Positions 3,001 through 49,900 are shown, counted from the stretch's first letter. The stretch is 64,000 nucleotides of DNA from Balanoglossus misakiensis (GCA_040954595.2 CM082588.2:11669398-11733397); one strand, 5' to 3'. The notes: a model not told the origin generated them from the sequence alone. Made by a program: numbers and translations.

Positions 3001-6000
3001 ATGCCCCGTTACTATATATAGGACACAGACTGGCGTAAGTTAACAACGGTAATCACGTCGGGTTTCCTACGGCCTGGCTCAGCTGAAGCCCCGGCACTCT
3101 AGAGCAGAAACAGGCGTACATTGACCACGTTGATCAAGTCAGATTTCCTACGGCGTGACTCGGCTGGTGCACCGGCTCTATATGACACAGACAGGCGTAA
3201 GTTATCAACGGTGATTACGTCGGATTTCCTACGGCCTGGTTTAGCTGAAGCCCCGGCACTTTAGAGCGGAAACACGCGTACATTGACCACGATGATCAAG
3301 TCAGATCTCCTACGGCCTGGCTCGACTAAAACCCCGGCACTCCATGACAGACACTAGCGTTCGTTAGCAACGGTGGTCAAGTCGGATTTCCTTCGGCCTG
3401 GCTCTGCAAAAGACCCGACACTCTAGTACAAAGACGTTGGCTAAGTCGGGCAAACCGAAGAGGGGAAGTCACAGCGGGTCAACACTCGACATTTGTTCGG
3501 GTAGGACTGCATTATTGCCTGTCAATTTATAGAGGAAGCCCGAATTTAACCAGGGCGTTTCCAACACCGATGTTAGTTGGGCGCACGGCCTGCAGTACTG
3601 CCGGGTAAGCTGACATCGGCGTACCGCATATAATGTAAGGGGGGGGGGGGAACGGAACGGTTCAATACTACATTTATTAGATATCATCTAATTTTGGACA
3701 ATCATCTAAAATCTAAATCATTTTTTCATATTTGGATATCTGATGATGTAGGAAATTTCCATTATATGTAAAAATGGTGCTGATTATAAAAAATGCACTC
3801 TGAATGAGCTGATTTAATACAAAATTGCGTTTTATTCGTTTTTGCACCAAAAAGATCATTTTTAGGCAAAACATTCTTTATTTTTTTAATTCGGTGACCT
3901 GATCATATATAAACAATTGCTTGTATGTTAAAAGTTTTTCTGACTTTTAAAAGCAGTGACACTGGCGGCATTCAACACGAAAATAACAATTTTAGCCACA
4001 ATTTGGTCAAAATGGTAAATTTTTGAAAATTATAAAAAATACCTGTTTTCTACATTTTCGGAAATCTGATGGAGTATAGAATGCTCTTCGTATGTATATA
4101 TCGATACAAATTCCACAAAAGACCGTCTAATTTGGCTCACTGCAGACAAAATTGCGTTTTACCAAATTTTCCTTGAAAATGTCATTTTTAGAAAAACAAA
4201 TAAAAAAACCTTTGTTCTTCGAATTTGGTGCCCTGATCATATATGACATGTTGATTGTATGTTAAAACTTTCGACCACTCCAAAAATGCAGAGATATTGA
4301 CGGAATTCAAGAAAAAATAGCCATTTTGGCCATATTTTGACAAAAATGGTAAATTTTTAAAAAATCATAAAAAATTAACTCTTTTCTTCATTTTCGGAAA
4401 TATTATGGAGCATGAAGTGTCGTTCTCTTGTAAAAAGTGCTGCAAATTCCAGAAAAGGCGGTATAATTTGAATCACCCAAGACAAAATTACCATTTTCGA
4501 CTTTTTTTCGAAAAATTGTCTTTTTTACAAAATAAATAAGAATAAATTCTTTTCTTAGTTTCAAACGGGTAGAGATACTTTCCACACGGGTTTCCTAACA
4601 TTGACTTCCCGTTCATCAACTCAGATTTCCTACAGCATAAGTCGGCTAAAACCCTGACACTCTAGAGCAGAAACAGTTGCACACTGGAAACGTTGAACAA
4701 GTCGATTTTTCTACGGCCTGGCTCGGCTAAATCTCCGTCACAATATGACAGACACTAGCGTACGTTAGCAATGGTGATCAAGTGAGATTTCCTACGGCAT
4801 GGCTTGGCTAAAGCCCTGGCACTCTAGAGCAGAAACACGCGTACAGAGACCACGTTGATCTACTCACATTTCCTTCGGCCTGGCACGGCTGATGCCCCGG
4901 CACTATATATAGGACACAGACTGGCGTAAGTTAACAACGGTAATCACGTCGGGTTTCCTACGGCCTGGCTCAGCTGAAGCCCCGGCACTCTAGAGCAGAA
5001 ACACGCGTACAGAGACCACGTTGATCAAGTCTGATCTCCTACGGCTTGGCTCGACTAAAACCCCGGCACACTATGACAGACACTAGCGTTCGTTAGCAAC
5101 GTTGATCAAGTCAGATTTCCTACGGCTTGGCTTGGCTAAAACCCTGGCACTCTAGAGCAGAAACACGCGTACAGAGACCACGTTGATCTACTCACATTTC
5201 CTTCGGCCTGGCACGGCTGATGCCCCGGCACTATATATAGGACACAGACTGGCGTAAGTTAACAACGGTAATCACGTCGGGTTTCCTACGGCCTGGCTCA
5301 GCTGAAGCCCCGGCACTCTAGAGCAGAAACACGCGTACAGAGACCACGTTGATCAAGTCTGATCTCCTACGGCTTGGCTCGACTAAAACCCCGGCACACT
5401 ATGACAGACACTAGCGTTCGTTAGCAACGTTGATCAAGTCAGATTTCCTACGGCTTGGCTTGGCTAAAACCCTGGCACTCTAGAGCAGAAACACGCGTAC
5501 AGAGACCACGTTAATCTACTCACATTTCTTTCGGCCTGGCACGGCTGATGCCCCGGCACTATATATATGACACAGACTGGCGTAAGTTAACAACGGTAAT
5601 CACGTCGGGTTTCCTACGGCATGGCTCAGCTGAAGCCCCGGCACTCTAGAGCAGAAACAGGCGTACATTGACCACGTTGATCAAGTCAGATTTCCTACGG
5701 CCTGGCTCGACTAAAACCCCGGCACACCATGACAGACACTAGCGTTCGTTAGCAACGGTGATCAAGTCAGATTTTCTACGGCATGGCTTGGATAAAGCCC
5801 CGGCACTCTAGAGCAGAAACACGCGTACAGAGACCACGTTGATCTACTCACATTTCCTTCGGCCTGACACGGCTGATGCCCCGGCACTATATATAGGACA
5901 CAGACTGGCGTAAGTTAACAACGGTAATCACGTCGGGTTTCCTACGGCCTGGCTCAGCTGAAGCCCCGGCGCTCTAGAGCAGAAACAGGCGTACATTGAC

Positions 6001-6227
6001 CACGTTGATCAAGTCAGATTTCCTACGGCGTGACTCGGCTGGTGCACCGGCTCTATATGACACAGACTGGCGTAAGTTATCAACGGTGAATACGTCGGAT
6101 TTCCTACGGCCTGGTTTAGCTGAAGCCCCGGCACTTTAGAGCGGAAACACGCGTACATTGACCACGATGATCAAGTCAGATCTTCTACGGCCTGGCTCGA
6201 CTAAAACCCCGGCACACCATGACAGAC
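1..6227. repeat. Macrosatellite array, left part (~2.0-2.05 kb unit: AT-rich block + ~81-bp GC-rich subrepeats)
   Basis: Anchor ttcggaaatctgatggagtatagaatgc recurs at ~1, ~2004, ~4057. Subrepeat core (tcaagtcagatttcctacggc...ccccggcac) recurs every ~80-83 bp in 560-1440, 2570-3440 and 4620-6227. Confidence 0.97.
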
Positions 6228-6817
6228 TATGGAAAGCCGTTGGGGACCCCCGACAACTTCTCTCAATACATGGGTAAAGTCCATAGACAAATGATAGGAA
6301 CGCATATGCTGAAAATATGACGCACATTGGGTGCCGACGCCGTAATCTAAAATGCCGGTAACAACCAAATTTTTGCCGACACCTTTACTCAATCTACCGG
6401 CGCCGACAAAATCACAACCAGTGATTTGATGAGTTCTCGCATCGGCGTTTCTACAGAGTTGTCGCATCGGCGTTTCAGCTAGAGTTTTCTCGCATCGGCG
6501 TTTCTGGAGAGTTTTCTCGCACCGGCATTCTACACATGCGCATTGGCGTTTCAGCTAAAGAGTTTTCTCGCATCGGCGTTTCTGGAGAGTTTTGTCGCAC
6601 CGGCATTCTACACATGCGCATTGGCGTTTCAGCTAAAGAGTTTTCTCGCATCGGCGTTTCTGGAGAGTTTTGTCGCGCCGGCATTCTACACATGCGCATT
6701 GGCGTTTCAGCTAAAGAGTTTTCTCGCATCGGCGTTTCTGGAGAGTTTTGTCGCGCCGGCATTCTACACATGCGCATTGGCGTTTCAGCTAAAGAGTTTT
6801 CTCGCATCGGCGTTTTC
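6228..6817 (+). repeat. Left TIR including ~4 copies of a 78-bp subterminal repeat
   Basis: First ~200 bp are near-identical to the reverse complement of 32810-33010. They are followed by cgcatcggcgtttc-based units with a 78-bp period (the 26-aa period seen in ORF 6475..6834). Confidence 0.93.
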
Positions 6818-9066: not shown

Positions 9067-10353
9067 ATGTTACTGGCCCAAAAATTGCAAACTTGATATA
9101 GAAACCAAGACACTGTAGCAAATGATGTCATCCTTCGCTTCAGAGATGGTCAGACGAGAAGGGCCCATTCATTGGTGTTGTGTCTTTTTTCGGATGTGTT
9201 TGCCGCCCGTTTGCATTCGGAATGGGCCAACGACAAAACCATTGATTGTTCTGACTTTGATCCCTTACTCATGCAAAATGTCATTGATGATTTTTATTTT
9301 GAAAAGTTAAATATTACAAGTGAAAATGTTGAAGATTATGTGGAGATATGTAACTTTTACATGATAAATTCTTTAAAAGAGAAATGTGAATCATTTTTAA
9401 TTTCCAACATTGTAACTTCCCGCAGTATTAGAGACCTTGTATTTTGTCAGAAATACCAGTTAGATAGTACTTTTGAACACTGTCTGTCAATAATTGATCA
9501 GAATGGTGTTAAACTGTTTAATTCTGAGCAAGTTTTGGAAGATTTTCTTCAACTTCCTGAAAGCATAGTTGTAAAAATAATTCAGCGTCAGACGCTTTCG
9601 GTAAAGGAAGACACACTTTTGAATGCATTGTTTTTATGGGTGGAAAGGAAACTTCAGGGTGTCAATGGCAATGATATGGATGCCCCCTTTTGTTTTGAGC
9701 CATTTCTTCCCCACATCCGTTTCTTGTCGTTAAGTGAAGAAAGTATTCATCGACTAATTTCTGAACAAATTTTGTGTTATGAAGATGTCTTCCAGATATT
9801 AAAAGCAGTTCGACATCCTGGATGCAATTTTCCTGTTCCTGGTTATGTGGATGTAATCACAAGAAATGTGGTTCCAAATAATGCCATTGTGGCGCGGCGT
9901 TTCATCAATGAAAAAAATCCAAACACATGGAAAGGAAACCAATTTGAGGGTGACAGGATTTCCTTTTCAGTGGATGTTCCTGTCTCACTGCTAGGTGTTT
10001 ATGTGTTTGGAAATACAGATGAAAGTGTCCATGCTCATGTCACAATATTAAATCATCAACAAGCTGTTGTGTACAATACAGAAGCCTCAAACACTTCCCC
10101 CCAGATTACCTTTCCTGTTGTCTTCAGTAAGCTGATTAAAATCCAACCCAATGTAGATTATTCAGTTGTCTGTCAAATCAGAGGAAATAAAGAAACATCA
10201 TTCGGGTCATGTGGGATCTCTCGCCGAAGAATCACAACATTAAAAAGTACTGATTTCTGGGTGACATTTAAAAATTTCAGTATGCAAGGTCTGAGCAATG
10301 GCACAGATGTCAGTCAGGGGCAAATCTCATCACTAATATTCTTTGATATATAA
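9067..10353 (+). pseudogene. BTB-BACK-PHR protein (BTBD1/2/3/6-like), single coding exon, in-frame TGA at codon 10
   Basis: ATG 9067 follows a ttgcag acceptor and is in frame with ORF 9172..10353: MLLAQKLQT*YRNQ..NDVILRF..RAHSLVLCLFSDVFAA (BTB). FLQLP..EDTLLNALFLW..LPHIRF (BACK). DRISFSVDVPVSLLGVYVFG..SNGTDVSQGQISSLIF (PHR). Confidence 0.85.
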
Positions 10354-18049: not shown

Positions 18050-32242
<14,193 letters not shown>

Positions 32243-33010: not shown

Positions 33011-35642
33011 ACAGACACTGGCGTTCGTTAGCAACGGTAATCAAGTCGGATTTCCTTCGGCCTGGCTCTGCAAAAGACCCGACACTCTAGTACAAAGACG
33101 TTGGCTAAGTCGGGCAAACCGAACAGGGAAAGTCACAGCGGGTCAACACTCGACATTTGTTCCGGTAGGACTGCATTATTGCCTGTCAATTTATAGAGAA
33201 AGCCCGAATTTAACCAGGGCGTTTCAAACACCGACGTTAGTTGGGGCACGGCCTGCAGTACTGCCGGGTAAGCTGACATCAGCGTACCGCATATAATGTA
33301 GGGGGGGGGAACAGAACGGTTAAATACTACATTTATCAGATATCAGCTAATTTTGGACAATCATCTAAAATGTAAATCATCTTTTCATATTTGGATATCT
33401 GATGATGTATGACATTTCCATTATATGTAAAAATGGTGCTGATTATAAAAATGCACTCTGAATGAGCTGATTTAATGCAAAATTGCGTTTTATTCGTTTT
33501 TGCACCAAAAAGGTCATTTTTAGGCAAAATATTCTTTATTTTTTTAATTCGGTGACCTGATCATATATAAACAATTGCTTGTATGTTAAAAGTTTTTATG
33601 ACTTTTAAAAGCAGTGACACTGGCGGCATTCAACACGAAAATAACAATTTTAGCCACAATTTGGTCAAAATGGTAAATTTTTGAAAATTACAAAAAATAC
33701 CTGTTTTCTACATTTTCGGAAATCTGATGGAGTATAGAATGCTCTTCGTATGTATATATCGATACAAATTCCACAAAAGACCGTCTAATTTGGCTCACTG
33801 CAGACAAAATTGCGTTTTACAAAATTTTCCTTGAAAATGTCATTTTTAGAAGAAAAAAAAATTAAAAAACCTTTTATCTTCGAATTTGGTGCCCTGATCA
33901 TATATGACATGTTGATTGTATGTTAAAACTTTCGACCACTCCAAAAATGCAGGGATATTGACGGAATTCAAGAAAAAATAGCCATTTTGGCCATATTTTG
34001 ACAAAAATGGTAAATTTTTAAAAAATCATAAAAAATTAACTCTTTTCTTCATTTTCGGAAATATTATGGAGCATGAAGTGTCGTTCTCTTCTAAAAAGTG
34101 CTGCAAATTCCAGAAAAGGCGGTATAATTTGAATCACCCAAGACAAAATTACCATTTTCGACTTTTTTTCGAAATATTGTTTTTTTACAAAATAAATAAG
34201 AATAAATTCTTTTCTTAGTTTCAAACAGGTAGAGATACTTTCCACACGGGTTTTCTAACATTGAATTCCCGTTCATCAACTCAGATTTCCTACAGCATAA
34301 GTCGGCTAAAACCCTGAGACTTTAGAGCAGAAACAGTTGCACACTGGTAACGTTGAACAAGTCGATTTTTCTACGGCCTGGCTCGGCTAAATCTCCGTCA
34401 CAATATGACAGACACTATCGTACGTTAGCAACGGTGATCAAGTCAGATTTTCTACGGCATGGCTTGGATAAAGCCCCGGCACTAGAGCAGAAACACGCGT
34501 ACAGAGACCACGTTGATCTACTCACATTTCCTTCGGCCTGGCACGGCTGATGCCCCGGCACTATATATAGGACACAGACTGGCGTAAGTTAACAACGGTA
34601 ATCACGTCGGGTTTCCTACGGCCTGGCTCAGCTGAAGCCCCGGCGCTCTAGAGCAGAAACAGGCGTACATTGACCACGTTGATCAAGTCAGATTTCCTAC
34701 GGCGTGACTCGGCTGGTGCACCGGCTCTATATGACACAGACTGGCGTAAGTTATCAACAGTGATTACGTCGGATTTCCTACGGCCTGGTTTAGCTGAAGC
34801 CCCGGCACTTTAGAGCGGAAACTCGCGTACATTGACCACGATGATCAAGTCAGATCTCCTACGGCCTGGCTCGACTAAAACCCCGGCACACCATGACAGA
34901 CACTAGCGTTCGTTAGCAACGGTGATCAAGTCGGATTTCCTTCGGCCTGGCTCTGCAAAAGACCCGACACTCTAGTACAAAGACGTTGGCTAAGTCGGGC
35001 AAACCGAACAGGGAAAGTCACAGCGGGTCAACACTCGACATTTGTTCCGGTAGGACTGCATTATTGCCTGTCAATTTATAGAGAAAGCCCGAATTTAACC
35101 AGGGCGTTTCAAACACCGACGTTAGTTGGGGCACGGCCTGCAGTACTGCCGGGTAAGCTGACATCAGCGTACAGCATATAATGTAGGGGGGGGGGGACAG
35201 AACGGTTAAATACTACATTTATCAGATATCAGCTAATTTTGGACAATCATCTAAAATGTAAATCATCTTTTCATATTTGGATATCTGATGATGTATGACA
35301 TTTCCATTATATGTAAAAATGGTGCTGATTATAAAAATGCACTCTGAATGAGCTGATTTAATGCAAAATTGCCTTTTATTCGTTTTTGCACCAAAAAGGT
35401 CATTTTTAGGCAAAACATTCTTTATTTTTTTAATTCGGTGACCTGATCATATATAAACAATTGCTTGTATGTTAAAAGTTTTTATGACTTTTAAAAGCAG
35501 TGACACTGGCGGCATTCAACACGAAAATAACAATTTTAGCCACAATTTGGTCAAAATGGTAAATTTTTGAAAATTACAAAAAATACCTGTTTTCTACATT
35601 TTCGGAAATCTGATGGAGTATAGAATGCTCTTTGTATGTATA
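33011..35642. repeat. Macrosatellite array, middle part
   Basis: Same unit; anchor at ~33715 and ~35601. Confidence 0.97.
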
Positions 35643-35903
35643 TGTAGTAAATACCGGTTACTAACCTGGTAGGTACTACGGGTTGTCTTATTCCGGGCCA
35701 CAGAGTTTTGCTTGGTACTGGTCGTCAGTCCTGGTAGCGTGTTGCTCTGATGCTGGTCCGGGTCGTTCTGGTTCTGATAGTTGAGAAACGTGGGTAAAAA
35801 CCAGTAGCACAGGTGCAGGGCATTCCGTAGTGCAATTACGTCAGAGGCGTCCCACCTGTACAGCAGGGCGCCACCAACGGCCAGAAGCCCACAAATTACT
35901 ACA
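35643..35903 (-). repeat. 3' LTR
   Basis: No difference seen from 46730-46990. PPT aagaaaagtgggaagag lies directly upstream on the minus strand (35904-35920). Confidence 0.97.
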
Positions 35904-36025
35904 CTCTTCCCACTTTTCTTTTTTGGCAGGATGGTCAACCTAGGGATCTCAAAAGGCTAGAGAAGTTAACGTATTTTTCCCACCCCTGCAATCTGCCAAC
36001 CTCATGGTCTTGGCGAGATTGATCC

Positions 36026-38800
36026 CTAGTGATATAGACGTCTGGTGTTACGGACAGTTGCTTCAAGAAGGTGCACTAGATCAGTCCCCCTTGAGTTAGC
36101 AACAGCCACGGCCACATCCCCTATAAGAGCTGGAGTACTGGTTACATCACGAGGGCCCCCAAGATACGGCGAATCTGTTTCGATTAACAGACGCTCGATG
36201 GGCACCTCCTTCAAAGCTCGAATCTGGCAACGGTCAAATTTGGTGGTCGTGATGGAGAAACCGAAGTAACAATTCTTGAAGCGCTTCGACCACCTTTGAA
36301 CAGTGTTGACCGTACCAGTAAAATTGTGGATATGTATTTTCTGCCGTGGCGAACACCATTCCTGTACTAATTGCAATGCTTGGCAATGCACATCTGACCC
36401 ATACTGGTCCCCATATGGCCCTCTAATGTGCAGGACTAAGGGTTTCTCAGGCACACACATGGCAAGTGCTCGAGAGAGAACCCTGTCTTGGGCGCTCCCG
36501 TATTTACTTGGCTCTGTGCGGTCGAGACCCACCTCCCCAAGGGCGGCTACCTGTGTGCTCGTGACAAGCCGCTTGAGGGCTTTAAAGGTCCTTTCGTCGG
36601 CTCTTGGAGCTTTCCTTGGATGGATCCCGATGGCGATACTCCAACCTTTGGGCCGGTTCAAATCCATGGGGTAGTACTCCGGATCGCAAAAGACCTCGAC
36701 GCCCCCAATGATGTTGACAGGAAAATTCGCCCTTGGGCCATTATGCCAGTTAACCAAAGCTACTGATGTTGCAGGGCAGTCCCTACCGCGAAATCGAGCC
36801 AGTGTTCGGTCAAGATGAAAGTGGGAATCCATGGCTTCCAATAGACTGTCTGATTGTAGATAATCCTGTGCTGTCCCCTGTAACTCTTGCTCAATAGGTT
36901 GGTCAGCTTGGGATTCTATTGTAATTGAGTCCAGTATCACGTATTCAACCGGGAGCTCAATTTCTGATGGTGGGATCGGGACTGAGTCCTGTATCACGTG
37001 ATCAACAGGTTGCTCAGCCTGTGGGATCCTTTCAGTACAGTCTAATGGAATTTCTTTCTCTACTTGATCACCCCATGAGATTCCCTGGGACGTGGAGTCC
37101 TGTATCACGGATTCAACAGGTTGTTCCATTTCTCCCATACCTATAATCATTGCCAAGTCTTGGTGTGCGTCCTCCACATGGATCGGACTATTTCCTGAGG
37201 CTACAGGTGAATATGTGATCTCCCTCGCATGAGTTGGAGATTGGAACTCACCTTCATTTTCGGAAACCATTTCCTGGTCGACACAGGAGCCAGTCTCCCC
37301 CCTAGGGGTAGGTGACCGCGGCTCGCCGTGATCTGCCTCAGGATTCTCTGTTACCATTTCCTGGTCTGCACTTGGCGAGCAGGAGACAGTCTCCCCCGTA
37401 AGGGTAGGTGACTGAGGATCTCCGTGCTCTGCCTCGGGGCCTTCCAGTTCCGGCATCGGATGACATGGTGAATGCGAGGTGATCTCCGCCACTGGGGTGG
37501 GAGACCGGGACTCACCATGCTCCCTTGGGGGTACCACGGGTTGGAAGGCTTCCCGCTGCTCCTCAGTCAGGTGCGAAAGGAGGATGACGAGAATCCTCCA
37601 ATGCAGCAGGACGGCTGGTGAATTCGGTGGGTGCAGCGAGAATCGTCGTGGTACGGCCCATCCGCTGGTCTGGCACAGTCGCTTCATCATCAGACAGTTG
37701 GCTTCGGTGAGCGCAGAGGATGCTGGGACTTCTTCCAAGTGATGTTGCAGGAAGTACTCCAGCAGCTTGGTGACAGTTCCTCTGGGGCCCAAAACCCAGC
37801 CCGCCAGCTTCAGCAGGGCATGAGTAACATCAGCTGTCTGCATGATAAGGGGGTTTTCCTGTAGACGGGGGTCGATATGGTAGAAGAAGCAGTGCCGTTT
37901 GAGACGTTTGGAGGTCTGCCCACATCCTGGAATAGGGCAGGTACATGAGCGGCTGTTGGTAGATTTTCTGCTTCTTCTACCCCTACAGGAATTGGTCGCC
38001 GCAGTCGTGGTGGTCTTTGACTTCGGCACCCCCTTCGGCTCCTGTGCCATCCATACAACGGAGCGTCGCCGCCGCTTCCCGTCACGCTGTATGGTCACCT
38101 CCAAACGAGATTCCTCACCCCGCTCTCGCTTCTTTGGTTTAGTGGCCGCCATCTTCTGCGTTCCTCTCCGTGGCTGGCTTGATGTCTTTCGTGGTGGCTC
38201 ACGGGGGGTACTTTTCCGTGGCTCTGCCAGGGGTCGCCGCGCAGCTACTGCTGAGTACAATTCACGGGGCGCTGCAGAAGATGGTTGTGTCGATGTTCTT
38301 CGGGGTGAGGATGCCCGCGATGTTGAGGCGATGGAGGTGACTGGGTCCCTGCCTTGCATGGTGTCTTCTACTACAACCGTCTCCCCCGACTTCTTCAGCA
38401 GGTGCTTGACAGTCGGGAGATCGGGCTGCGTCTGTAGGCGAACATCACGGCAGGGTCCAGACGTGACGGTACTGCTGGGACGGGACTTCCGTTGCGGGAT
38501 CCTGTTCTTATGCGGATCCCGATGGAGAAGATGCTTGTACAGCCATTCCTCGGAGAAGATCACATCGGCTTCGCGGCGTGTAGTCTCCACCCAATGCCAA
38601 TGGCCTCTCCGAGATGCTAGTTGATACTGGCGTAACAGCATCCTCTCCTTTTCAGGGAGCGTGACCTTGGCCAGCCCGATGCCGTAGGTGAGGTCGAGTG
38701 GTGGAAGCAGAATCCGTTTCCGGTCTGCCTCCACCACTTCTTGCCAGGTCATATGCTGCTTCTTAGGGCGAGGTCCCCCGCGATACCGCTGGGAGTCCAT
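36026..38800 (-). CDS. ORF3, 924 aa: basic disordered region, C2H2-like motif, acidic repeats, C-terminal TatD-family nuclease
   Basis: MDSHFHLD, IGIHP, VAALGEVGLD, KPLVLHIR, IHIHNFTG, LLIETDSPYL match the TatD metal-binding motifs. The first ATG is at 38800, after an acceptor-like tract. Confidence 0.9.
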   Translation of the reverse strand: MDSQRYRGGPRPKKQHMTWQEVVEADRKRILLPPLDLTYGIGLAKVTLPEKERMLLRQYQLASRRGHWHWVETTRREADVIFSEEWLYKHLLHRDPHKNRIPQRKSRPSSTVTSGPCRDVRLQTQPDLPTVKHLLKKSGETVVVEDTMQGRDPVTSIASTSRASSPRRTSTQPSSAAPRELYSAVAARRPLAEPRKSTPREPPRKTSSQPRRGTQKMAATKPKKRERGEESRLEVTIQRDGKRRRRSVVWMAQEPKGVPKSKTTTTAATNSCRGRRSRKSTNSRSCTCPIPGCGQTSKRLKRHCFFYHIDPRLQENPLIMQTADVTHALLKLAGWVLGPRGTVTKLLEYFLQHHLEEVPASSALTEANCLMMKRLCQTSGWAVPRRFSLHPPNSPAVLLHWRILVILLSHLTEEQREAFQPVVPPREHGESRSPTPVAEITSHSPCHPMPELEGPEAEHGDPQSPTLTGETVSCSPSADQEMVTENPEADHGEPRSPTPRGETGSCVDQEMVSENEGEFQSPTHAREITYSPVASGNSPIHVEDAHQDLAMIIGMGEMEQPVESVIQDSTSQGISWGDQVEKEIPLDCTERIPQAEQPVDHVIQDSVPIPPSEIELPVEYVILDSITIESQADQPIEQELQGTAQDYLQSDSLLEAMDSHFHLDRTLARFRGRDCPATSVALVNWHNGPRANFPVNIIGGVEVFCDPEYYPMDLNRPKGWSIAIGIHPRKAPRADERTFKALKRLVTSTQVAALGEVGLDRTEPSKYGSAQDRVLSRALAMCVPEKPLVLHIRGPYGDQYGSDVHCQALQLVQEWCSPRQKIHIHNFTGTVNTVQRWSKRFKNCYFGFSITTTKFDRCQIRALKEVPIERLLIETDSPYLGGPRDVTSTPALIGDVAVAVANSRGTDLVHLLEATVRNTRRLYH

Positions 38801-38835
38801 GATCTGTACAAGAAAGAATAAGAGACATGATGAGG

Positions 38836-41800
38836 TTACACTGAAACTGCGCTTATTTCGCTTGGTTTGCAGTTGGGACAAGAAAACAGTGCTTTTTTCT
38901 TAATTTCGGTTGGTGTAACATTCACACACGCTCCATGAAACCATTCATAGCAATAATCACACTGGATCATAAGTTTCCCATCATCAGGTTTCCTGCAAAG
39001 GCAATATACTTCACCCATTCCTGCGCTGTCCTTAAGTAAGGTCTTCCTAAAGGTTACTATCCAGCGAGGAAGCTCTTTATCCTGGCAAGGCTTTAGCCGA
39101 TCGTGATGGGCGGTCCAAACCTCTCTTCGCAATTTGATGCGGAAGAGATAGGGTGTGATTTTGGTGATGATGACCCCTGGTCCTTTCCAAGGTGGGCACA
39201 GTTTACGGCATTTGCCTTTCGTGGATCCGGTATCCAACAGATATACTGGATCCCCGACCTTGAAGGACTGCTTGTTCACTCGGAGGTCGTAATCACGTTT
39301 CATTCTTTCTTGTGTGGTCTTCAGTATTTCCCGCGCTGTCTCATGAGAATTCATTATGGCCTCCTCCAATTCGTACACATACCCCTCATGAGATTGGTCA
39401 GTGTTTGTCCTGGGAGGCCGGAATACAAGATCAGCGGGCTGGTTTATTTCCCTACCTAACATCATCCGGTTGGGCGTAAAACCAGTGCTGCGGTTGACTG
39501 AAGAGCGGAGAGCTCCGGCGATCTGTGAGAGAAATTTATCCCATTCTTTCTGTGACTTGATGTAGCATCTGATTGCGTTCATCAAAGTGCGATTCTGCCG
39601 TTCCGCCTGGCCATTAGCAGATGGTCTGTAAGAAGTGGTTCTTGTTTTATGGATATGAAGAATCTCACAAATCACTGAAAATAACTGACTTTCAAAGTTT
39701 CTTCCCTGGTCAGTGTGAATTTCAAATGGATACCCGAACCTGGTAAAGAATTCAGCTACTGCGGCGTGTGCTGTTTCCTCAGCATTTTGGGTTGGCAGCG
39801 GTATACATTCTACCCACTTGGTGAATTGATCTACCATTACCAGGATATACTCATTACCCCGAGGTGTCTTGGGTAACGGCCCTAGGAAATCCAAGTGAAC
39901 TCGTTCCATCGCTGCCCCCGCATGAAATAGGGTCAGCTGATGTCGGTGGTGTCTGTGTGCTTTCTTGTCGTGATTGCAAATTGCACACATTGTGACATAC
40001 TTGCGGATGTCGTGGGACATCCTATACCAATGGTATTTGGTCCTGATTCTGGCTTGAGTGCGCTGTATTCCCTGGTGCCCACAAGATGGAATATCATGAT
40101 TCAACCGTATAACTTCATCTTTCATGGTATTAGGGATGACTAGTTGTTTGGTGTTTTCATCTGTGGCCGACTTTCTCCACAGTACTCCCTCCTCAATGAA
40201 GTATAGGTCACGGTTGATCCAATAATTCTTTGCTGCAGGGCTGGAGAGTCTCAGCTCTCCTTCCTCAGGAACTTTCCCAGTTTCAAGCCATGTGATGAGA
40301 ATCCCCAGTGTTTTATCAGTCTGCTGTGCCTGTTGGTATTCTTTGTGAGAATATCCTAGGATGGCTGTTCCCAGTTTAGTGGAATCCTCTCTGGATAGTA
40401 TGCAGACTTGTACAGGATCCGGAAAGTGGGAAATTTCGAGGTTCGAATGAGGCACGTCGATTAGTTCGTCCTGGACTGTGTCACGGGTGATTCCGCAGCA
40501 AGTTAATAGACCCAAGTTACCTCCAGGGTCCCATGGCCAGGTCTCTTCATCTTGAATTGCTGGTTGTATTTGTGGGTCCATGCTACCGGTACATTGGTTC
40601 ACCACATATGGCCCTTCTTTTTGGTGGAGTTGGCTGTTCCTGTGTTTGTCTCTGGGTTCAGCCATGGTAAGGGGAATTACATCATCCACCTCATTGATGA
40701 ACGGGCTCCAGTTTCGATGTGCTCTGCTGCAATAGTTGCATCCCCCGCAAGGTAAGGATTCCAATTTTGTTCCATGCTCAAAATTGGTGCAGGCACTTTG
40801 CTCGGGTAATCTTGACAGGGAGTCGGCGTTGATGTGTTGTTTTCCTGGTCGGTGTTGCACAGTAAAGTTGTACTGGCTTAGTTCTTCTAGCCAGCGAGCT
40901 AATTGGCCTTGTGGTTCTTTGAATCGTATTAGCCATAGCAAACTGTGATGATCTGTCCGTACCAGAAATTTATTACCAAGCAAGTAGTATCGAAACTGCC
41001 GGGTGAACCTTACGACTGCCAGCAATTCTTTTCTTGTGGTGCAGTACCGTCTCTGTTCAGGTGTCAGGGCATAACTTCCATAAGAAATTGTTCTCTCCTT
41101 GCCGTTCTGTATCTGGGATAACTCAGCTCCGATGGCAAAGTCTGAGGCATCCGTGTCTAGAATGAAGTTATAATAATAATAATAGTTTATTCAGATACAA
41201 TATAGGCCACCGGCCTCTGTGTATACAAACTAGTACGTCACCTGAAATCTCCGGAGGACGCAAAAATGTAAAATAATTGTCGAATTACATCATGGCCATG
41301 AAAAAGGAAAGAAACGAATCACACTTCAGATCGTTTTTTCGTGGCAAAAAATACAAATTTTGACAGATTACGCAAGATACTTGGGTTACATGATTGCATG
41401 AGGAGGTAAAATTTATCGTAGGTTGGCATAAAATAGTAATATCTAGGAATATACTTGACTCGTAAATCCGCATAGAATGGACACACAATACAAAAGTGAA
41501 ATTCATCCTCTATCTCATTACCATTACAATAGATACATGTTCTATCTTCACGATTATTGCGTAATCGCCTGTCAGCTTCGATACGTAAAGCGTGCGCTGA
41601 TATTCTAAATCTACAAAGTGCCTCTCGAAAGTGCGACTTTTCAATCATGTTGAAATACAATTCTCGTCGAAAAATATGTTTGAACTTTCTGTAAGAGTCT
41701 AGTTTAGGAAACAAACGTAGACTAGTATGCCAGTTTTAAACATCTAGATCATGACAACGCTGTTTGAATAAGGAAATAAAATTGACATTGTTACCAACCC

Positions 41801-43915
41801 CCTGATTAACCCATGCCTCACCCATTCCATAGGAAAAAAGTAACATTTTCACATCGTGAGAATGAAGTTATCCTCTGTATTGGGCAAGGTCAGAACAGGG
41901 GCAGCGGTGAGTGCTTTCTTGATGTCCTCAAAAGCTTGATGTTGCTCATACCCCCAGGCGAATGGTTTCTTCCCGGTTACACTGTACAGAGGTACCGCTA
42001 ACTTGGCATAATCCTTGATGAAGGCGCGATGGTAGTTCGCAAATCCTGCAAATTTTTCCACGTCCTTCGTGTTGATAGGGATTGGCCATTCTTGGATCAT
42101 CCGAATAGATTGATCTTCAAGAGATATTCTGTTTCTACCAACTTTCCTACCCAGGAAACTTACTTCCTGTTGGAATAACTCACACTTTCTTGGCTTGAGT
42201 TTCAGTTGGTACTTCCGTAGTCGTTTGAAGACTTCCCGGAGATTTTTAAGGTGTTCTTCGAAGCTTGATCCGAGCACCATTATATCATCCAGAAATGCCA
42301 GTACGATGTCCCAAATTAGGCCCCTTAGTACTAGGTTCATCACTCTGGAGAAAGTAGCAGGTGCGTTGCACAGACCAAACGGCATTCGGGTAAATTCGTA
42401 CAAACCGTATTTGGTGGTGAAAGCCGTTTTCTTGCAGTCGGGTGGATTAATACTTATCTGCCAGTATGCCGAGTTGGCGTCCAACTTGGAGGACCATAGA
42501 CATCCTGACATCCAATGGCAGCGGAAAAACGTCCTTTACGGTGATGTTGTTTAGGGCTCGATAATCCACACACCAACGCACGCTTGCATCTCGTTTTCGC
42601 ACTAGAACTGGTGCCGAAGCCCATTCGGAGATTGATGGCCTTATAACTCCGGCATTCAGCATTTTCTTTAAGTGGGCTTCTTCTTCCCCTGCAAAACACA
42701 TTGGAGTGCGCCGTAGACGTTGCTTTATTGGTGGATTGTCTTTTGTGTCGACGCTATGTGTGATTGCAGTGAAATTTCCCAGATCAAATTCGTCCTTGGC
42801 GAAAACATCTTCGTAATCGAACAGAAGTTTATGTAGTTGGGTTTGTTCATCTGCTTGAAGATGACTGCAGGATCTTTCAAACAGATTTCCTAAATGTGAA
42901 GGTAGCCCGCCTACCGGCTGAGGGCGTACTTCAGTCTTCTGTTGGGCGTCAGGTGATGGGACGGTGATCACCTCCACTTCTGTAGCTGATGCGATAGGAT
43001 CCTTGCTCTTCAGAGTTATATAATTCTCCGTCGGGTTGACTAAACAAACCTTAGGTGATTGTTCCCCCGAGTGAAGTGTCCTGGGCATCATTACTTTCAA
43101 TCCCTGGGTTGGTTCTACCAAATAGTCGGTTAGATCCGTATCGAGTAAACAGGATATTCTGACCACACTATTCGGTGGGATGATTGTCCGTCGCTTCAAA
43201 GTTACCTTTGCCACTTTCGGCGAATGATCCCTCTGTCCAAGGGTCATAGGTATGTTTTCCTCCCCCAAATGGAGCCAGTTGTTACTCATGTTGATGGTTG
43301 CTCCATTTGCTTGTAGGAAATCAACTCCCAGTAGCATTTCGTCGCCTATTGGGGCTACGTATATATCGGCATTGAAGACGGCACGTCCTAGCTGGATGTC
43401 AACGGGTCCGACCAGGTTGGCTTTCATGGTTAACTGTCTTCCAGCTGTTTGCATGGTAACTTCCCGCAATATTGGAGGTTTTACTCGCAGACTGTTGTAC
43501 AGTTGGTCAGAGATAATAGTGACTTCTGCGGCGGTATCGATGATAGCGGTAGCGGACTGGTCTCCAATTTTTGCTGGGATGCTATACATTGAACTGGACA
43601 CAAGTTGGTTAATGACAACCATAGGCATGTCATTAGCTTCGGATGTTGCCATACTGGTCTTTGACGATTTTGTCTCTTCCACTGTTGAGTTGGTCACATC
43701 TGCGCAATGTGTACCATCATCAGTTGGAGTTGGTATAGTCGTTGTATACACATCTGCACAATGTGTATTGACATCAAGTGTTACCGATTCAGCTGATGGC
43801 GATGGCACGTCAATATTACAGTTGCGATCGCCCTCCGTGGAAGCGTTGAGGCCATAGGTTATGGGTTGTTGGGTCAAACTTTGGCCTCTGGGCTTGACCC
43901 TTTGGTGTTTAATGG
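38836..43915 (-). pseudogene. pol: pol (protease-RT-RNase H-integrase-PHD), disrupted by a frameshift at ~42510 and a LINE insertion at 41172-41858
   Basis: IIDTAAEVT (PR); [21 protein letters not shown] (RT); LDTDASD, RKELLAVV, TDHHSL (RH); HDIPSCGH..CAIC, HLDFLGP, TDQGRNF, NGQAER, WKGP (IN); YCLCRKPDD..MIQCDYCYEWFHGAC..CPNC (PHD). Confidence 0.95.
41172..41858 (-). mobile_element. 5'-truncated non-LTR retrotransposon (RTEX-like C-terminus) inserted in pol
   Basis: 13-bp TSD agaatgaagttat (41159-41171 / 41859-41871); (ATT)n tail; FRISAH.L.IE..CIYC..EDEFHF..CPFY.DLR motif. Confidence 0.9.
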
Positions 43916-45547
43916 ACTGGCCGGCGCTGTTTCCTTCTTTTCTGATGTTCCATGGGGACATTCCCTCTTAAAATGGCCTATCTCGCCGCACCCATAGCAA
44001 CCACGGCTTCTCGGAGATGGGGATCAGTACCTTGATGTCTGCTGCGTTGTCACCACTTTGGTTAATTCGGCCAGTTGGGTGGTGACAGTCTGCAAAGTTG
44101 CGCTGATTGCCGACATCTGCGTCTCCAGCCTCGACATCCTCCCCTGCATCTCAGTTCCTCCGTCTTTGCTTCTCGGGCGGATGGGAGCTCTTTCAGGAGA
44201 GGGTGATTGTTTTCGCTCATACCTGGAGACAGATCGTGCTTCGATGTTGGTTTTCAGGTATTCCGGATCAGGACTTACAAATCGTACTTCCCGCCTCTGC
44301 GATCGGATGCCATAGATTGCTTGATGATTATACTGGAATCTTTTGACAGTATCGATCGCTGCTTCGATGGAAGTTGGACGCTGATTTGCTGCCCATTGGC
44401 CTGCTTCTCGATCACAACATCCTTGGCAAAAGCGCATCACAGCTTGAAGCTCTATGGTGGCATCGCTGCTTTCTTGAAATGCCTGCATCGCAAGTGAATA
44501 AACCCTGTCCGCCCATTCTTCTAATTTCTCCTCGGTGTTTTGTCGGATCTGGGCGAACTGAAGCTGACTGGATTCTGGAATCTCTTTCAAGCCGAATCGT
44601 TTCTCCAGTTTTTTTAGCAGCTCGTGATAGCTGACGTCTGCGTTTTTCTGGAGGATCCTGGTATAAACTTCACTTGCTTTCCCCTCTAAACACCAGCACA
44701 GATAATTTTTGCATTCATTGAATGACATGTCCTGCATCTCGGCAAATTTCGTGAAATTTACCTGATATGCCTGCCAGTTTCCGGAGCCATCGTAGATTAG
44801 CGTCCTGGGAACTGACATTGGGATGTGACGATGACTTGATCTGTCCATCCGGTTATCATGCTGGTAGTAGGGTTGAGTTCTGGGAGGAGCGAATTCTGTT
44901 GGATAATGGCCATCATAATAATCCGGTGATGCACCCGCTCGTGGTCTGGACACATTCACCCGTGATGGACGATAATTCTGCTCATCTTCAGGCCAGGTCG
45001 CATATCGCTGTTCATCGCGAACACTTCGTGGATATGGTCTACCATACGCAGGAGCATCTGGCCTGTACGCAGGATGGAATGAACTATCATACCCCCGAGA
45101 GTCGGTATGATGTTGACTTACCCTATCCTGCGTATAGTCTGGTTCGTCAAATCGCCTCGATCGAATAGGTGCTTTGGGTTGTTGATGTCGTGAAGGTCGT
45201 TGAACATGTCTGCTTTCGCGTTCTTTCGTGACCTTGTCAATCCTTTCCATCCATTCCTTCATGCTATCTTCATCACTATCCTTCCCGCTGTCTTCCTCAT
45301 CTTCCCAGAACGGGGCGAGATGGGTAGTTGTGTTCATGGATGGTTTGGCTGAAGCACCTGGTGGGTCGAAGTCGGCCATCTCCGTGAATTCTTCGGATGG
45401 TTTGAACCTAGGAATACTGCATACCATCTCATATGTTACATAGCCATGTCGTTCACGTAATCGCAGAATCGCCTTTGCTATTTTCCGTCCCACTCCAGGT
45501 AGACATTGAAGAGTTCCTAGAGTACTGGTGTTGACGTTGATTTTCAT
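43874..45547 (-). CDS. gag: gag with N-terminal helix-hairpin-helix and C-terminal CCHC knuckle; in-frame TGA at 44024-44026
   Basis: [33 protein letters not shown] (HhH); [31 protein letters not shown] (capsid). Beyond the TGA the frame continues [29 protein letters not shown] to a TGA at 43874. Confidence 0.9.
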
Positions 45548-46715
45548 GATGGCGCGTTAGAAATTATTGAGATGGAAGTTGCAGATACCGTTGTCGGAAA
45601 ATATTACCCACACAAGGACAGAGTAATATTTAACAAAGTGATATTACTCGTAATATTTACTGAGCAATACCCAAATTGATCAGTTTGTCACAAGAATAAT
45701 CAACGACAATGACCAATCAATTATATCACAACAATAATAGAACCCGCAATTATACAGAGTAATATAATGTGATAATAAGACTAGTACGACTGATATCAAT
45801 AATACAATAATTGGAATGGCTCACAATAATAAAACTCGCAATAATACTGAGTAATACAATGCGACACCAAATATTATTGATATAGCGAATAATTGAACAG
45901 TTTCAACACTTACCAATTGCTGAGGAATTACAGTTCTGTACTGATACTGTGTGGTACAACTAGTAAAAATGCGAAACAAAGCGGAATTTGTTAAAGCGAA
46001 ACTTTTCAGAAGTAAAACAACAGATAAAAGACAAGTCCGAAAGCTGGAACTTGTCCGCACAAAAAGTACGTAAAATTATGACGAAAGGTGCGGTGTACAG
46101 AACTGCCACAAAAAATGGCTTCTTTGACGAAATGGCTTCCTCGTCAATGCAATGGTGGCACCAATACTAGCAGAAAGTTACTTTCCAAGCTATCCGTACA
46201 CACACAACGGCAGTATAACGGGCTAGGAAGTATAACTGCAAATCTTACCTTGCCGTGTTCGGAAGTTCGCCGTACACACAAAAAATACGGTAAGACAAAG
46301 TACACGTAAAACAACACAGAAATAAGTTGTGAAACTTTTCCTTGAAACGTGCACAGAAAAAAAACGGCACAGTGTAGCGGAAAATTCCTCTCACTGAATT
46401 TCTTGAACTTGGCCCCAGCTGTCCGAACTTCAATAAATATTACAAGCTTTACCGGAACAACTGGAGATTCGTTCCCAGTTTTCTCTCGACTTCACCTAGT
46501 TCTCTGTCTCCCACCAGAAAAACTAATGAAGACGGTTTCTTGGTGCAAGTGTTGAAAACTGAAAGCACTTGGGCGTCCGCACTACTCCTATAAGTTTCAA
46601 GCGGAAAGCCGCGACGCAACTTTAACGATAGCGAGTACTCCGACTACTTATCCTCAAAAATCGGCAAAAAGTTACCAACGGAGTTTTTTCACTTTTTCCC
46701 CACTAGGGTTGAAAA

Positions 46716-46728
46716 GTCGCAGCGCCAA
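46716..46728 (-). promoter_or_regulatory. Primer binding site (TGGCGCTGCGAC; possibly tRNA-Ser)
   Basis: TGG start 1 nt after the 5' LTR. The complement ..CGCAGCGCCA resembles animal tRNA-Ser 3' ends (from memory). Confidence 0.75.
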
Positions 46729-46729
46729 T

Positions 46730-46990
46730 TGTAGTAAATACCGGTTACTAACCTGGTAGGTACTACGGGTTGTCTTATTCCGGGCCACAGAGTTTTGCTT
46801 GGTACTGGTCGTCAGTCCTGGTAGCGTGTTGCTCTGATGCTGGTCCGGGTCGTTCTGGTTCTGATAGTTGAGAAACGTGGGTAAAAACCAGTAGCACAGG
46901 TGCAGGGCATTCCGTAGTGCAATTACGTCAGAGGCGTCCCACCTGTACAGCAGGGCGCCACCAACGGCCAGAAGCCCACAAATTACTACA
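46730..46990 (-). repeat. 5' LTR
   Basis: TG..CA ends with an 8-bp inverted repeat; followed on the minus strand by the PBS. Confidence 0.97.
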
Positions 46991-49900
46991 TATATATCGA
47001 TACAAATTCCACAAAAGACCGTCTAATTTGGCTCACTGCAGACAAAATTGCGTTTTACCAAATTTTCCTTGAAAATGTCATTTTTAGAAAAAAAAAAAAA
47101 AAACCTTTGTTCTTCGAATTTGGTGCCCTGATCATATATGACATGTTGATTGTATGTTAAAACTTTCGACCACTCCAAAAATGCAGAGATATTGACGGAA
47201 TTCAAGAAAAATAGCCATTTTGGCCATATTTTGACAAAAATGGTAAATTTTTAAAAAATCATAAAAAATTAACTCTTTTCTTCATTTTCGGAAATATTAT
47301 GGAGCATGAAGTGTCGTTCTCTTGTAAAAAGTGCTGCAAATTCCAGAAAAGGCGGTATAATTTGAATCACCCAAGACAAAATTGCAATTTTTCGACTTTT
47401 TTTCGAAAAATTGTCTTTTTTACAAAATAAATAAGAATAAATTCTTTTCTTAGTTTCAAACGGGTAGAGATACTTTCCACACGGGTTTTCTAACATTGAA
47501 TTCCCGTTCATCAACTCAGATTTCCTACAGCATAAGTCGGCTAAAACCCTGAGACTTTAGAGCAGAAACAGTTGCACACTGGTAACGTTGAACAAGTCGA
47601 TTTTTTACGGCCTGGCTCGGCTAAATCTCCGTCACAATATGACAGACACTAGCGTACGTTAGCAACGGTGATCAAGTCAGATTTTCTACGGCATGGCTTG
47701 GATAAAGCCCCGGCACTCTAGAGCAGAAACACGCGTACAGAGACCACGTTGATCAAGTCTGATCTCCTACGGCTTTGCTCGACTAAAACCCCGGCACACT
47801 ATGACAGACATTAGCGTTCGTTAGCAACGTTGATCAAGTCAGAATTCCTACGGCATGGCTTGGCTAAAGCCCTGGCACTCTAGAGCAGAAACACGCGTAC
47901 AGAGACCACGTTGATCTACTCACATTTCCTTCGGCCTGGCACGGCTGATGCCCCGGCACTATATATAGGACACAAACTGGCGTAAGTTAACAACGGTAAT
48001 CACGTCGGGTTTCCCACGGCCTGGCTCAGCTGAAGCCCCGGCACTCTAGAGCAGAAACATGCGTACATTGACCACGTTGATCAAGTAAGATTTCCTACGG
48101 CGTGACTCGGCTGGTGCATCGGCTCTATATGACACAGACTGGCGTAAGTTATCAACGGTGATTACGTCGGATTTCCTACGGCCTGGTTTAGCTGAAGCCC
48201 CGGCCCTTTAGAGCGGAAACACGCGTACATTGACCACGATGATCAAGTCAGATCTCCTACGGCCTGGCTCGACTAAAACCCCGGCACACCATGACAGACA
48301 CTAGCGTTCGTTAGCAACGGTGATCAAGTCGGATTTCCTTCGGCCTGGCTCTGCAAAAGACCCGACACTCTAGTACAAAGACGTTGGCTAAGTCGGGCAA
48401 ACCGAACAGGGAAAGTCACAGCGGGTCAACACTCGACATTTGTTCCGGTAGGACTGCATTATTGCCTGTCAATTTATAGAGAAAGCCCGAATTTAACCAG
48501 GGCGTTTCAAACACCGACGTTAGTTGTGGGCACGGCCTGCAGTACTGACGGGTAAGCTGACATCGGCGTACCGCATGTAATGTAGGGGGGGGGAACAGAA
48601 CGGTTCAATACTATATTTATTAGATATCAGCTACTTTTGGACAATCATCTAAAATCTAAATCATTTTTTCATATTTGGATATCTGATGATGTATGAAATT
48701 TCCATTATATGTAAAAATGGTGCTGATTATAAAAAATGCACTCTGAATGAGCTGATTTAATACAAAATTGCGTTTTATTCGTTTTTGCACCAAAAAGGTC
48801 ATTTTTAGGGAAAACATTCTTTATTCTTTAAATTCGGTGACCTGATCATATATAAACAATTGCTTGTATGTTAAAAGTTTTAATGACTTTTAAAAGCAGT
48901 GACACTGGCGGCATTCAACACGAAAATAACAATTTTAGCCACAATTCGGTCAAAATGGTAAATTTTTGAAAATTACAAAAAATACCTGTTTTCTACATTT
49001 TCGGAAATCTGATGGAGTATAGAATGCTCTTCGTATACATATATCGATACAAATTCCACAAAAAAACGGCCAATTTGGCTCACTGCAGACAAAATTGCGT
49101 TTTACCAAATTTTCCTTGAAAATGTCATTTTTAGAAAAAAAATAAAAAAAACCTTTGTTCTTCGAATTTGGTGCCCTGATCATATATGACTTGTTGATTG
49201 TATGTTAAAACTTTCGACCACTCCAAAAATGCAGAGATATTGACGGAATTCAAGAAAAAATAGCCATTTTGGCCATATTTTGACAAAAATGGTAAATTTT
49301 TAAAAAATCATAAAAAATTAACTCTTTTCTTCATTTTCGGAAATATTATGGAGCATGAAGTGTCGTTCTCTTGTAAAAAGTGCTGCAAATTCCAGAAAAG
49401 GCGGTATAATTTGAATCACCCATGACAAAATTACCATTTTCGACTTTTTTTCGAAAAATTGTGATTTTTACAAAATAAATAAGAATAAATTATTTTCTTA
49501 GTTTCAAAAGGGTAGAGACACTTTCCACACAGGTTTTTTAACATTGAATTCCCATTCATCAACTCAGATTTCCTACAGCATAAGTCGGCTAAAACCCTGA
49601 CACTCTAGAGCAGAAACAGTTGCACACTGGTAACGTTGAACAAGTCGATTTTTCTACGGCCTGGCTCGGCTAAATCTCCGTCACAATATGACAGACACTA
49701 GCGCACGTTAGCAACGGTGATCAAGTCAGATTTTCTACGGCATGGCTGGGATAAAGCCCCGGCACTCTAGAGCTGAAACACGCGTACAGAGACCACGTTG
49801 ATCAAGTCTGATCTCCTACGGCTTGGTTCGACTAAAACCCCGGCACACTATGACAGACACTAGCGTTCGTTAGCAACGTTGATCAAGTCAGATTTCCTAC

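Follow-up and report, generated by a model that had tools for sequence, protein, structure and literature searches.

Introduction

To our knowledge, enzymatic third genes are rare in retrotransposons with long terminal repeats (LTRs), and we know of none with a tested function. Another kind of addition is found in the chromoviruses, the Gypsy elements whose integrase carries a chromodomain. The closest described counterparts of the first kind are the Gypsy-type elements Juno and Vesta of bdelloid rotifers, in which the third open reading frame (ORF3), past pol, encodes a DEDDy 3'-5' exonuclease or a GDSL esterase (PMC5408684). In the errantiviruses, the env-carrying Ty3/Gypsy elements, the third ORF lies between pol and the polypurine tract (PPT) (PMC13524379). 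Here we describe a Ty3/Gypsy LTR retrotransposon of 11,348 bp, located on the minus strand at positions 35643-46990 of a 64,000-nucleotide stretch of Balanoglossus misakiensis DNA (GCA_040954595.2 CM082588.2:11669398-11733397; hereafter the window, to whose first letter all coordinates refer), in which the third ORF encodes a protein ending in a TatD-type nuclease domain.

Like Juno and Vesta as described in PMC5408684, the present element is of Gypsy type and carries past pol an enzyme-coding, non-env ORF3 that keeps its catalytic residues, has no membrane segment and has a function inferred from sequence. The fold is different, with a DEDDy fold in the rotifer elements and a TatD TIM barrel here; moreover, whereas the Juno and Vesta ORF3s are reported as recent, family-specific gains, ORF3 here characterises a deep clade whose synonymous sites are saturated and whose relatives span two phyla, and is accompanied by extra zinc-finger and helical domains, a PHD-finger integrase and a helix-hairpin-helix (HhH) Gag. 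With the errantiviruses the element shares the position of its third ORF and a splice-acceptor-like signal of the kind used for env messages (PMC13524379, in part), but its ORF3 product has no signal peptide, membrane segment or match to fusion proteins. As in chromoviruses, a histone-reader module is fused to the C-terminus of integrase, although it is a PHD finger of the H3K4me3-reader type (H3K4me3, trimethylated lysine 4 of histone H3) instead of a chromodomain.

No earlier description of a TatD-bearing Gypsy element was found in the open literature, as judged from listed records and the openings of abstracts, in keeping with the first-pass annotation of the window, which knew of no functional description; Repbase, Dfam and subscription journals lay outside that search. 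Nor was such an element seen in the available main text of PMC13524379, PMC2836005, PMC6238403, PMC8220671, PMC6431247 and PMC6338049, and one paper that the search turned up (PMC6962438) deals with a host gene. A literature search for an HhH-Gag in Gypsy elements or a PHD finger on a Ty3 integrase gave nothing matching this element; a PHD finger has been reported on one transposase of Ginger1, a DNA transposon (PMC2836005). The lineage may be one of the MolGy clades, which are defined by reverse transcriptase and RNase H (PMC6238403), and this lineage-wide arrangement, a Gypsy element with an enzymatic, non-env ORF3 of the TatD kind, is apparently undescribed in print.

Results

The first-pass annotation had placed a third ORF inside an LTR-bounded unit, between pol and the PPT, and the coordinates of all parts agree with this. 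The two LTRs (5' LTR, 46730..46990; 3' LTR, 35643..35903; both on the minus strand, as are all element features given below) are 261 bp each, have TG...CA termini and are 100% identical. They are flanked by a 4-bp TATA target-site duplication (35639..35642 on the left and 46991..46994 on the right), and public contigs contain joints of the empty site at which 11,352 bases are skipped, the length of the element plus 4. Gag is followed by pol in the order protease, reverse transcriptase (RT), RNase H and integrase, and Pfam matches confirmed this Gypsy order. A primer-binding-site-like sequence begins 2 nt past the 5' LTR (46714..46727), a candidate to which no tRNA match was assigned but whose motif also follows an LTR end in two relatives (L090 and L183), and a PPT abuts the 3' LTR (35904..35924). 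These features, namely directly repeated LTRs bounded by TG...CA, a short duplication of the target, the gag-pol order, and a primer-binding site and PPT adjoining the LTRs, are those by which a member of the Ty3/Gypsy elements (Metaviridae) was recognised here. ORF3 (36026..38800) is open, starts 35 nt past the pol stop and encodes 924 residues from its ATG.

The earlier reading of a complete TatD-like domain at the end of ORF3 was borne out by profile, fold and active site. Residues 655-924 (36029..36838) match the Pfam family TatD_DNase with an E-value of 7.8e-35 and 120.9 bits against a curated cut-off of 27, while scoring under the NCBIfam bacterial cut-offs, and the model of this C-terminal barrel resembles TatD and YcfH structures with template-modelling scores of up to 0.80. 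The HxH motif that defines class II TatDs (PMC10085689) is present (H660 and H662) together with the rest of the class II active site, namely Glu (E756), His (H791), His (H825) and Glu-x-Asp (E874 and D876). All seven residues are kept in 88 of 100 aligned ORF3s whose sequences are only about 30% identical, whereas 12 lack at least one ligand. ORF3 is very probably an active two-metal nuclease. These 12 exceptions, the long stretches of disorder and the presence of two other conserved folded domains besides the nuclease would also fit a protein that is mainly a non-catalytic scaffold, binding nucleic acid or protein for the export, packaging or localisation of element RNA and using the nuclease fold as a binding module; however, the retention of the catalytic and metal-binding residues at such divergence makes this quite improbable.

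The ORF3 model comprises three confident domains linked by disordered tracts, one basic (42 Lys or Arg in 178 residues) and one acidic. The N-terminal domain (residues 15-105; 38486..38758) is helical, has been assigned to no family and is predicted with a local distance difference test score (pLDDT) above 90. The middle domain (residues 283-420; 37541..37954; mean pLDDT 94) combines a C2H2-like zinc finger, kept in 79 of the 81 rows covering the region, with a helical bundle and the motif P-x-N-S-P-A-x-L-x-H-W-R. Foldseek returned no match to this domain at E 0.001 from the PDB and viral libraries, which does not prove a new fold; the widest structure search gave a best Z of 4.0, and matches in the Atlas were to unnamed clusters only (0.90). 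In some relatives (P0127, P0144, P0161, P0372 and P0370), TatD is preceded by extra zinc knuckles or by a PF13837 domain, which makes the N-terminal part of ORF3 modular. A hydropathy scan of ORF3 found no hydrophobic segment (the highest 19-residue mean is 1.38, and 0.81 within the first 30 residues), in agreement with the reported lack of a signal peptide or transmembrane segment. With no membrane segment and TatD as the only Pfam match, an env-like role for ORF3 was rejected.

The association of this nuclease with a PHD-integrase pol extends far beyond the present copy. A pol search gave 252 matches, and among the 120 listed the best 54 all carry a PHD finger, as do 59 in all; one protein (P0197) joins HhH-Gag, pol and PHD. 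Scanning of prokaryote genome bins with the pol alignment yielded 62 Gypsy loci, which probably represent DNA of animal hosts within bins of symbionts. A PHD finger is present in 8 of them, and in all seven that extend more than 3 kb past integrase it is followed by the middle domain and TatD in the order of the window; the eighth ends 407 bases past integrase. Six of the eight also gave an HhH match with a profile built from two sequences. In the opposite direction, a TatD-alignment search of five bins returned 18 matches above 300 bits, none with an internal stop. PHD lies upstream of TatD in 15 of these, the other 3 contigs ending first. A PPT-LTR-like junction was found past TatD in 13 of 18 related loci inspected. 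In a starfish gene model (P0359) integrase, PHD, middle domain and TatD stand in one chain; it is the only pol-TatD fusion seen, the 120 listed long pol relatives and 49 long ORF3 relatives including none.

A tree of RNase H plus integrase (55 rows, loci with a full integrase and RNase H being included) places all 9 TatD rows in a 25-row clade with support of 100 and all 12 TatD-less rows with at least 3 kb of downstream sequence outside it, 34 rows being unscorable, so that the presence of TatD needs a single change. The rows with PHD form a 17-row subclade. Because the TatD linkage extends to the PHD-less sister branch, in which one locus (L112) has TatD without PHD, TatD was likely acquired before the PHD finger, unless PHD was lost in that branch. 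One-off capture by a single copy is rejected by this clade-wide linkage. Among related loci we also observed an RT-like fragment that breaks the middle domain (L182:3276-3395) and an integrase-PHD unit present twice in tandem (L185). One PHD-clade pol protein (P0208) also carries PF01885 and has the name RNA 2'-phosphotransferase (Tpt1/KptA) in its source record, possibly another captured enzyme.

Relatives of ORF3 occur in molluscs and echinoderms. A word search found three, and a profile search of 1.84 billion representatives found at least 150, most of them long proteins; the 916 representatives reached at E 1e-30 may include cellular TatDs and are not an element count. Of 163 proteins examined, the TatD part is matched by 160 and the middle domain by 126. 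Those with a named source belong to bivalves (Mya, Saccostrea, Argopecten, Ostrea, Pinctada, Crassostrea, Dreissena, Mytilus, Pecten and Ruditapes), gastropods (Haliotis and Elysia) and echinoderms (Acanthaster, Lytechinus and Strongylocentrotus), and we infer that ORF3 is linked to pol in the named molluscs. A Mya cluster has 13 near-identical members on many chromosomes; the contigs that carry them differ widely in length, in keeping with a mobile gene. Scans of viral contigs with the ORF3 and pol alignments returned no such element, or bacterial-type TatDs only. A single metagenome scan was filled by bacterial TatDs, which were used as outgroups, and no RNA record with ORF3 was listed. In one genome bin titled Sedimenticola (G001), 22 element-type TatD matches occur alongside numerous Gypsy contigs, which are likely repeats of an animal host; some of its element-type TatDs appear at NCBI as bacterial 'TatD family hydrolase'.

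Selection was assessed by Nei-Gojobori counting on 23 TatD domains. The ratio of nonsynonymous to synonymous substitution rates (dN/dS) is 0.13, 0.13, 0.15 and 0.16 in the four closest pairs and 0.14 in a fifth, nearly saturated pair, the remaining five of the ten closest pairs being saturated, and the proportion of nonsynonymous differences is below that of synonymous ones in all 253 pairs. Of the ten closest pairs, four could be measured for the middle domain, and their ratios are 0.19-0.30. The TatD domain is under purifying selection, and neutrality, which the first-pass annotation had proposed to check among copies, does not describe it. A comparison of RT and TatD phylogenies, also proposed there, was made with integrase in place of RT in 14 elements: five subclades are common to both trees, but the deep branches did not resolve. 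With recurrent linkage, purifying selection and a strong profile and fold match, the view that this lineage has its own accessory nuclease is upheld.

These data bear on two other explanations. Public annotations that call the proteins ordinary or uncharacterised genes, and the broken frames of some related ORF3s, would suit a TatD gene that is passive cargo or a host gene merely adjoining Gypsy fragments. This explanation is already contradicted and highly improbable, as TatD lies inside identical LTRs with a PPT and target duplication, the same order recurs in 15 related contigs, PPT-LTR-like junctions follow TatD as noted above, near-identical clam members are dispersed across chromosomes, and purifying selection and subclades shared with integrase are evident. 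Alternatively, ORF3 may be a counter-defence nuclease, directed not at R-loops but at PIWI-interacting RNAs, silencing-related nascent RNA, or immunogenic complementary DNA (cDNA) or hybrids. TatD diverges more rapidly than integrase, as conflict genes do (the highest identity to the window is 42% for TatD and 65% for integrase), and a soluble protein with a conserved novel domain could bind a host factor; in addition, parasite TatD orthologs are reported to act against host DNA traps (PMC10085689), and a silencing role has been raised for the bdelloid DEDDy ORF3s (PMC5408684). However, the dN/dS values indicate purifying and not diversifying selection over the whole domain and no host target has been identified, and we consider this explanation unlikely.

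The TatD domain resembles one host enzyme in particular. In the supplement of PMC10085689, the rows for human TATDN2 contain an F-C-D-P motif and an F-P-N segment, both of which are missing from the TATDN1, TATDN3 and Escherichia coli rows shown. Of 100 elements, 84 have the pattern [FY][CS][DE]P and 57 have FP[NH]; among 86 bacterial TatDs these counts are 0 and 1. In a tree of elements and bacteria only, 46 element-type TatDs split from 33 bacterial ones with support of 100, and NCBI names one clade member (P0371) 'putative deoxyribonuclease TATDN2'. A second cysteine described as TATDN2-specific (PMC10711561, in part) was tried as a marker and rejected as not diagnostic, since E. coli TatD has the same residue. 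As far as the available text of PMC10711561, PMC10085689 and PMC12709183 goes, human TATDN2 is likewise a long, largely disordered protein with an HxH class II TatD domain at its C-terminus; it shares the F-C-D-P motif with ORF3 and the F-P-N segment with most ORF3 relatives. Unlike TATDN2, ORF3 is encoded by a mobile element, intronless and present in many copies. On these motifs, the TatD of ORF3 probably derives from a host gene of the TATDN2 type.

ORF3 also appears to have its own expression signal. In 14 of 16 elements the ORF3 ATG is preceded, within 18 nt, by a pyrimidine tract and YAG, as are 120 of 2179 other ATGs; the rule was fixed after 8 elements had been inspected, and 7 of the 8 remaining elements pass it. 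In the window, the predicted acceptor (pyrimidine tract and CAG; 38804..38825) ends 3 nt ahead of the ATG, and the leader contains two donor-like sites, one predicted at 46243..46251 (intron start 46248) by consensus match only and a second candidate near 45914. It is likely that a leader donor is spliced to the acceptor before the ATG in the style of an env message.

The integrase and Gag of the element have additions of their own, both already recognised in the first-pass annotation. The PHD finger (38857..39012; E 9.7e-9, Pfam) follows integrase, where no chromodomain match was found with Pfam at E up to 0.1. It has C4HC3 ligands and the residues Tyr, Met and Trp, which we take to form the H3K4me3 cage; they are kept in 55, 58 and 60 of 60 rows, respectively, and the best structure matches are PHF2, PHF8, CFP1 and DIDO. 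From these residues, there is a somewhat better than even chance that the PHD finger steers integrase to H3K4me3 chromatin. A related Gypsy pol without PHD (P0290) carries PF07496 (zf-CW), presumably another reader of H3K4 methylation. At the N-terminus of Gag, a match to HHH_3 (E 4.7e-8, Pfam) marks the HhH motif, which resembles those of EEPD1 and ComEA.

The reported damage to gag and pol of this copy was confirmed, whereas the suggestion that its open ORF3 is a sign of selection did not stand. Gag (44024..45547; HHH_3, PNMA and Retrotrans_gag matches) has an in-frame stop at 44024-44026, ahead of its CCHC zinc knuckle. The 5' part of pol (42447..43967) encodes the aspartic protease and the start of RT; the rest of RT and the start of RNase H (41859..42535) are in a different frame, the break lying near 42510. 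RNase H is then interrupted by a 5'-truncated insertion of about 690 bp (41172..41858) with an (ATT)n tail and a 13-bp duplication, which is foreign to the element family and was labelled by eye as long interspersed element (LINE)-like, with no Pfam match; the 3' part of pol (38836..41171) contains the remainder of RNase H, integrase (H2C2 and core) and the PHD finger. The RT break may be a window-specific error or allele, because it is missing from the deepest contigs of two public runs (X1 and X2) and the window shows similar private indels against those runs in flanking DNA. No listed contig bridges the junctions of the LINE-like insert. In run X1 the contig depth of the element is 287-334, about half of that of flanking DNA (605-764), although depth is not copy number. 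The open ORF3 of this copy carries little weight as evidence of selection, because identical LTRs leave selection almost no time and one lesion may be an assembly error. Given the identical LTRs, the three lesions point either to very recent copying in trans of an already damaged template or to errors of assembly behind some of them.

A tandem repeat with units of about 2 kb, which themselves contain 81-bp subrepeats, occupies 1-6300 and 33100-64000 of the window, and the insertion of the element lies within a single unit; one part of the unit has 12 matches within the window, and contigs of the repeat are several hundred times deeper than flanking DNA. Rfam and tRNA scans of the window gave no match, so the target repeat corresponds to no known array of RNA genes. 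Elsewhere in the window, 9097-10353 holds an uninterrupted 418-residue frame that by eye resembles a BTB-BACK-PHR protein, 20497-24312 holds two long ORFs (283 and 983 residues) resembling ORF1 and the endonuclease-RT ORF2 of a CR1/L2-type LINE, and 26181-29823 holds partly duplicated RT and GIY-YIG-like ORFs resembling a Penelope-type element, the last two again by eye.

Discussion

Human TATDN2 reportedly digests the RNA in R-loops but spares the DNA strands, and its binding requires the long disordered N-terminus (PMC10711561, in part); ORF3 for its part has the basic disordered tract described above. With this activity in mind, the explanation that we favour, to which we assign a probability of roughly 50%, is that a clade-conserved nuclease of the TATDN2 type is made from a spliced message and removes R-loop RNA to the benefit of the element. 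A Gypsy clade would have captured the nuclease once from a host TATDN2-type gene, and the protein would be made separately from its own spliced message. Being soluble and likely nuclear, it would act at transcribed copies of the element or at its insertion sites, where it would strip R-loops or comparable RNA-DNA structures of their RNA strand, and this may ease transcription or integration and blunt RNA-guided silencing. This last part, the nuclear action and its benefits, is tentative, with rather less than an even chance of being correct. A still broader picture, of an ancient marine-invertebrate Gypsy clade that combines a TATDN2-type R-loop RNase, a new zinc-finger and helical domain, a spliced message and an H3K4me3-reading integrase to aim at active promoters and clear R-loops there or at its own transcribed copies, is doubtful as a whole.

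The first-pass annotation had raised the possibility that ORF3 is a cDNA-processing enzyme, a 3'-5' exonuclease or apurinic/apyrimidinic (AP) endonuclease that trims the ends of the element's own cDNA or repairs the integration gap. Class II TatDs such as TATDN3 are reported to have 3'-exonuclease and AP-endonuclease activity (PMC10085689), all active-site ligands are kept, and the HhH motif of Gag is of the DNA-binding type. However, such DNA roles would not be the best fit, because the motifs indicate the TATDN2 branch, for which degradation of R-loop RNA and sparing of R-loop DNA are reported (PMC10711561). In addition, the 12 related Gypsy loci without a TatD gene indicate that integration does not need TatD, and ORF3 stands as a gene of its own, preceded by an acceptor-like signal and lying outside the Pol polyprotein, which is packaged together with cDNA. 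A role in cDNA processing is therefore a poorer fit and, in our estimate, improbable.

Several observations weigh against the R-loop explanation or its parts. The TATDN2 motifs were compared by eye in a machine-read PDF; the ORF3 of the window has the F-C-D-P-type motif without the F-P-N segment, and its residue 826 is Asn, a position occupied by Cys in 82 of 100 relatives. The case for a TATDN2 origin is made from these motifs, the trees comprising elements and bacteria only; ORF3 has two folded N-terminal domains with no demonstrated homology to the TATDN2 N-terminus, and DNA is the substrate of other TatD enzymes in this class (PMC10085689). With regard to conservation and co-inheritance, two loci of the PHD-less branch (L101 and L104) have no ORF3 match in 1.2 and 1.4 kb past integrase, so that ORF3 could be dispensable in that branch. 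The first long frame past pol fails to extend into TatD in 4 of 16 related elements. The deep branches of the integrase and TatD trees are poorly resolved, and the correlation between integrase and TatD distances is modest (0.33 over 13 rows, reached by 83 of 5000 permutations). Finally, the only insertion site in hand, an AT-rich tandem repeat with no evident active promoter, gives promoter targeting no support.

Many genes that carry the label 'TatD' or 'TATDN2-like' in genomes of molluscs and echinoderms, as well as in some symbiont bins, probably belong to transposons. Fixation across a deep clade, purifying selection and a soluble catalytic domain open to direct assay make the role of a non-env ORF3 testable in these elements. 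Our results suggest that a germ-line genome-maintenance nuclease, TATDN2, has been turned to transposon use, and the integrase of the same elements may read a mark of active chromatin, the opposite of chromovirus targeting. If the broader picture outlined above is true, this lineage would follow a replication or anti-silencing strategy so far described for no retroelement.

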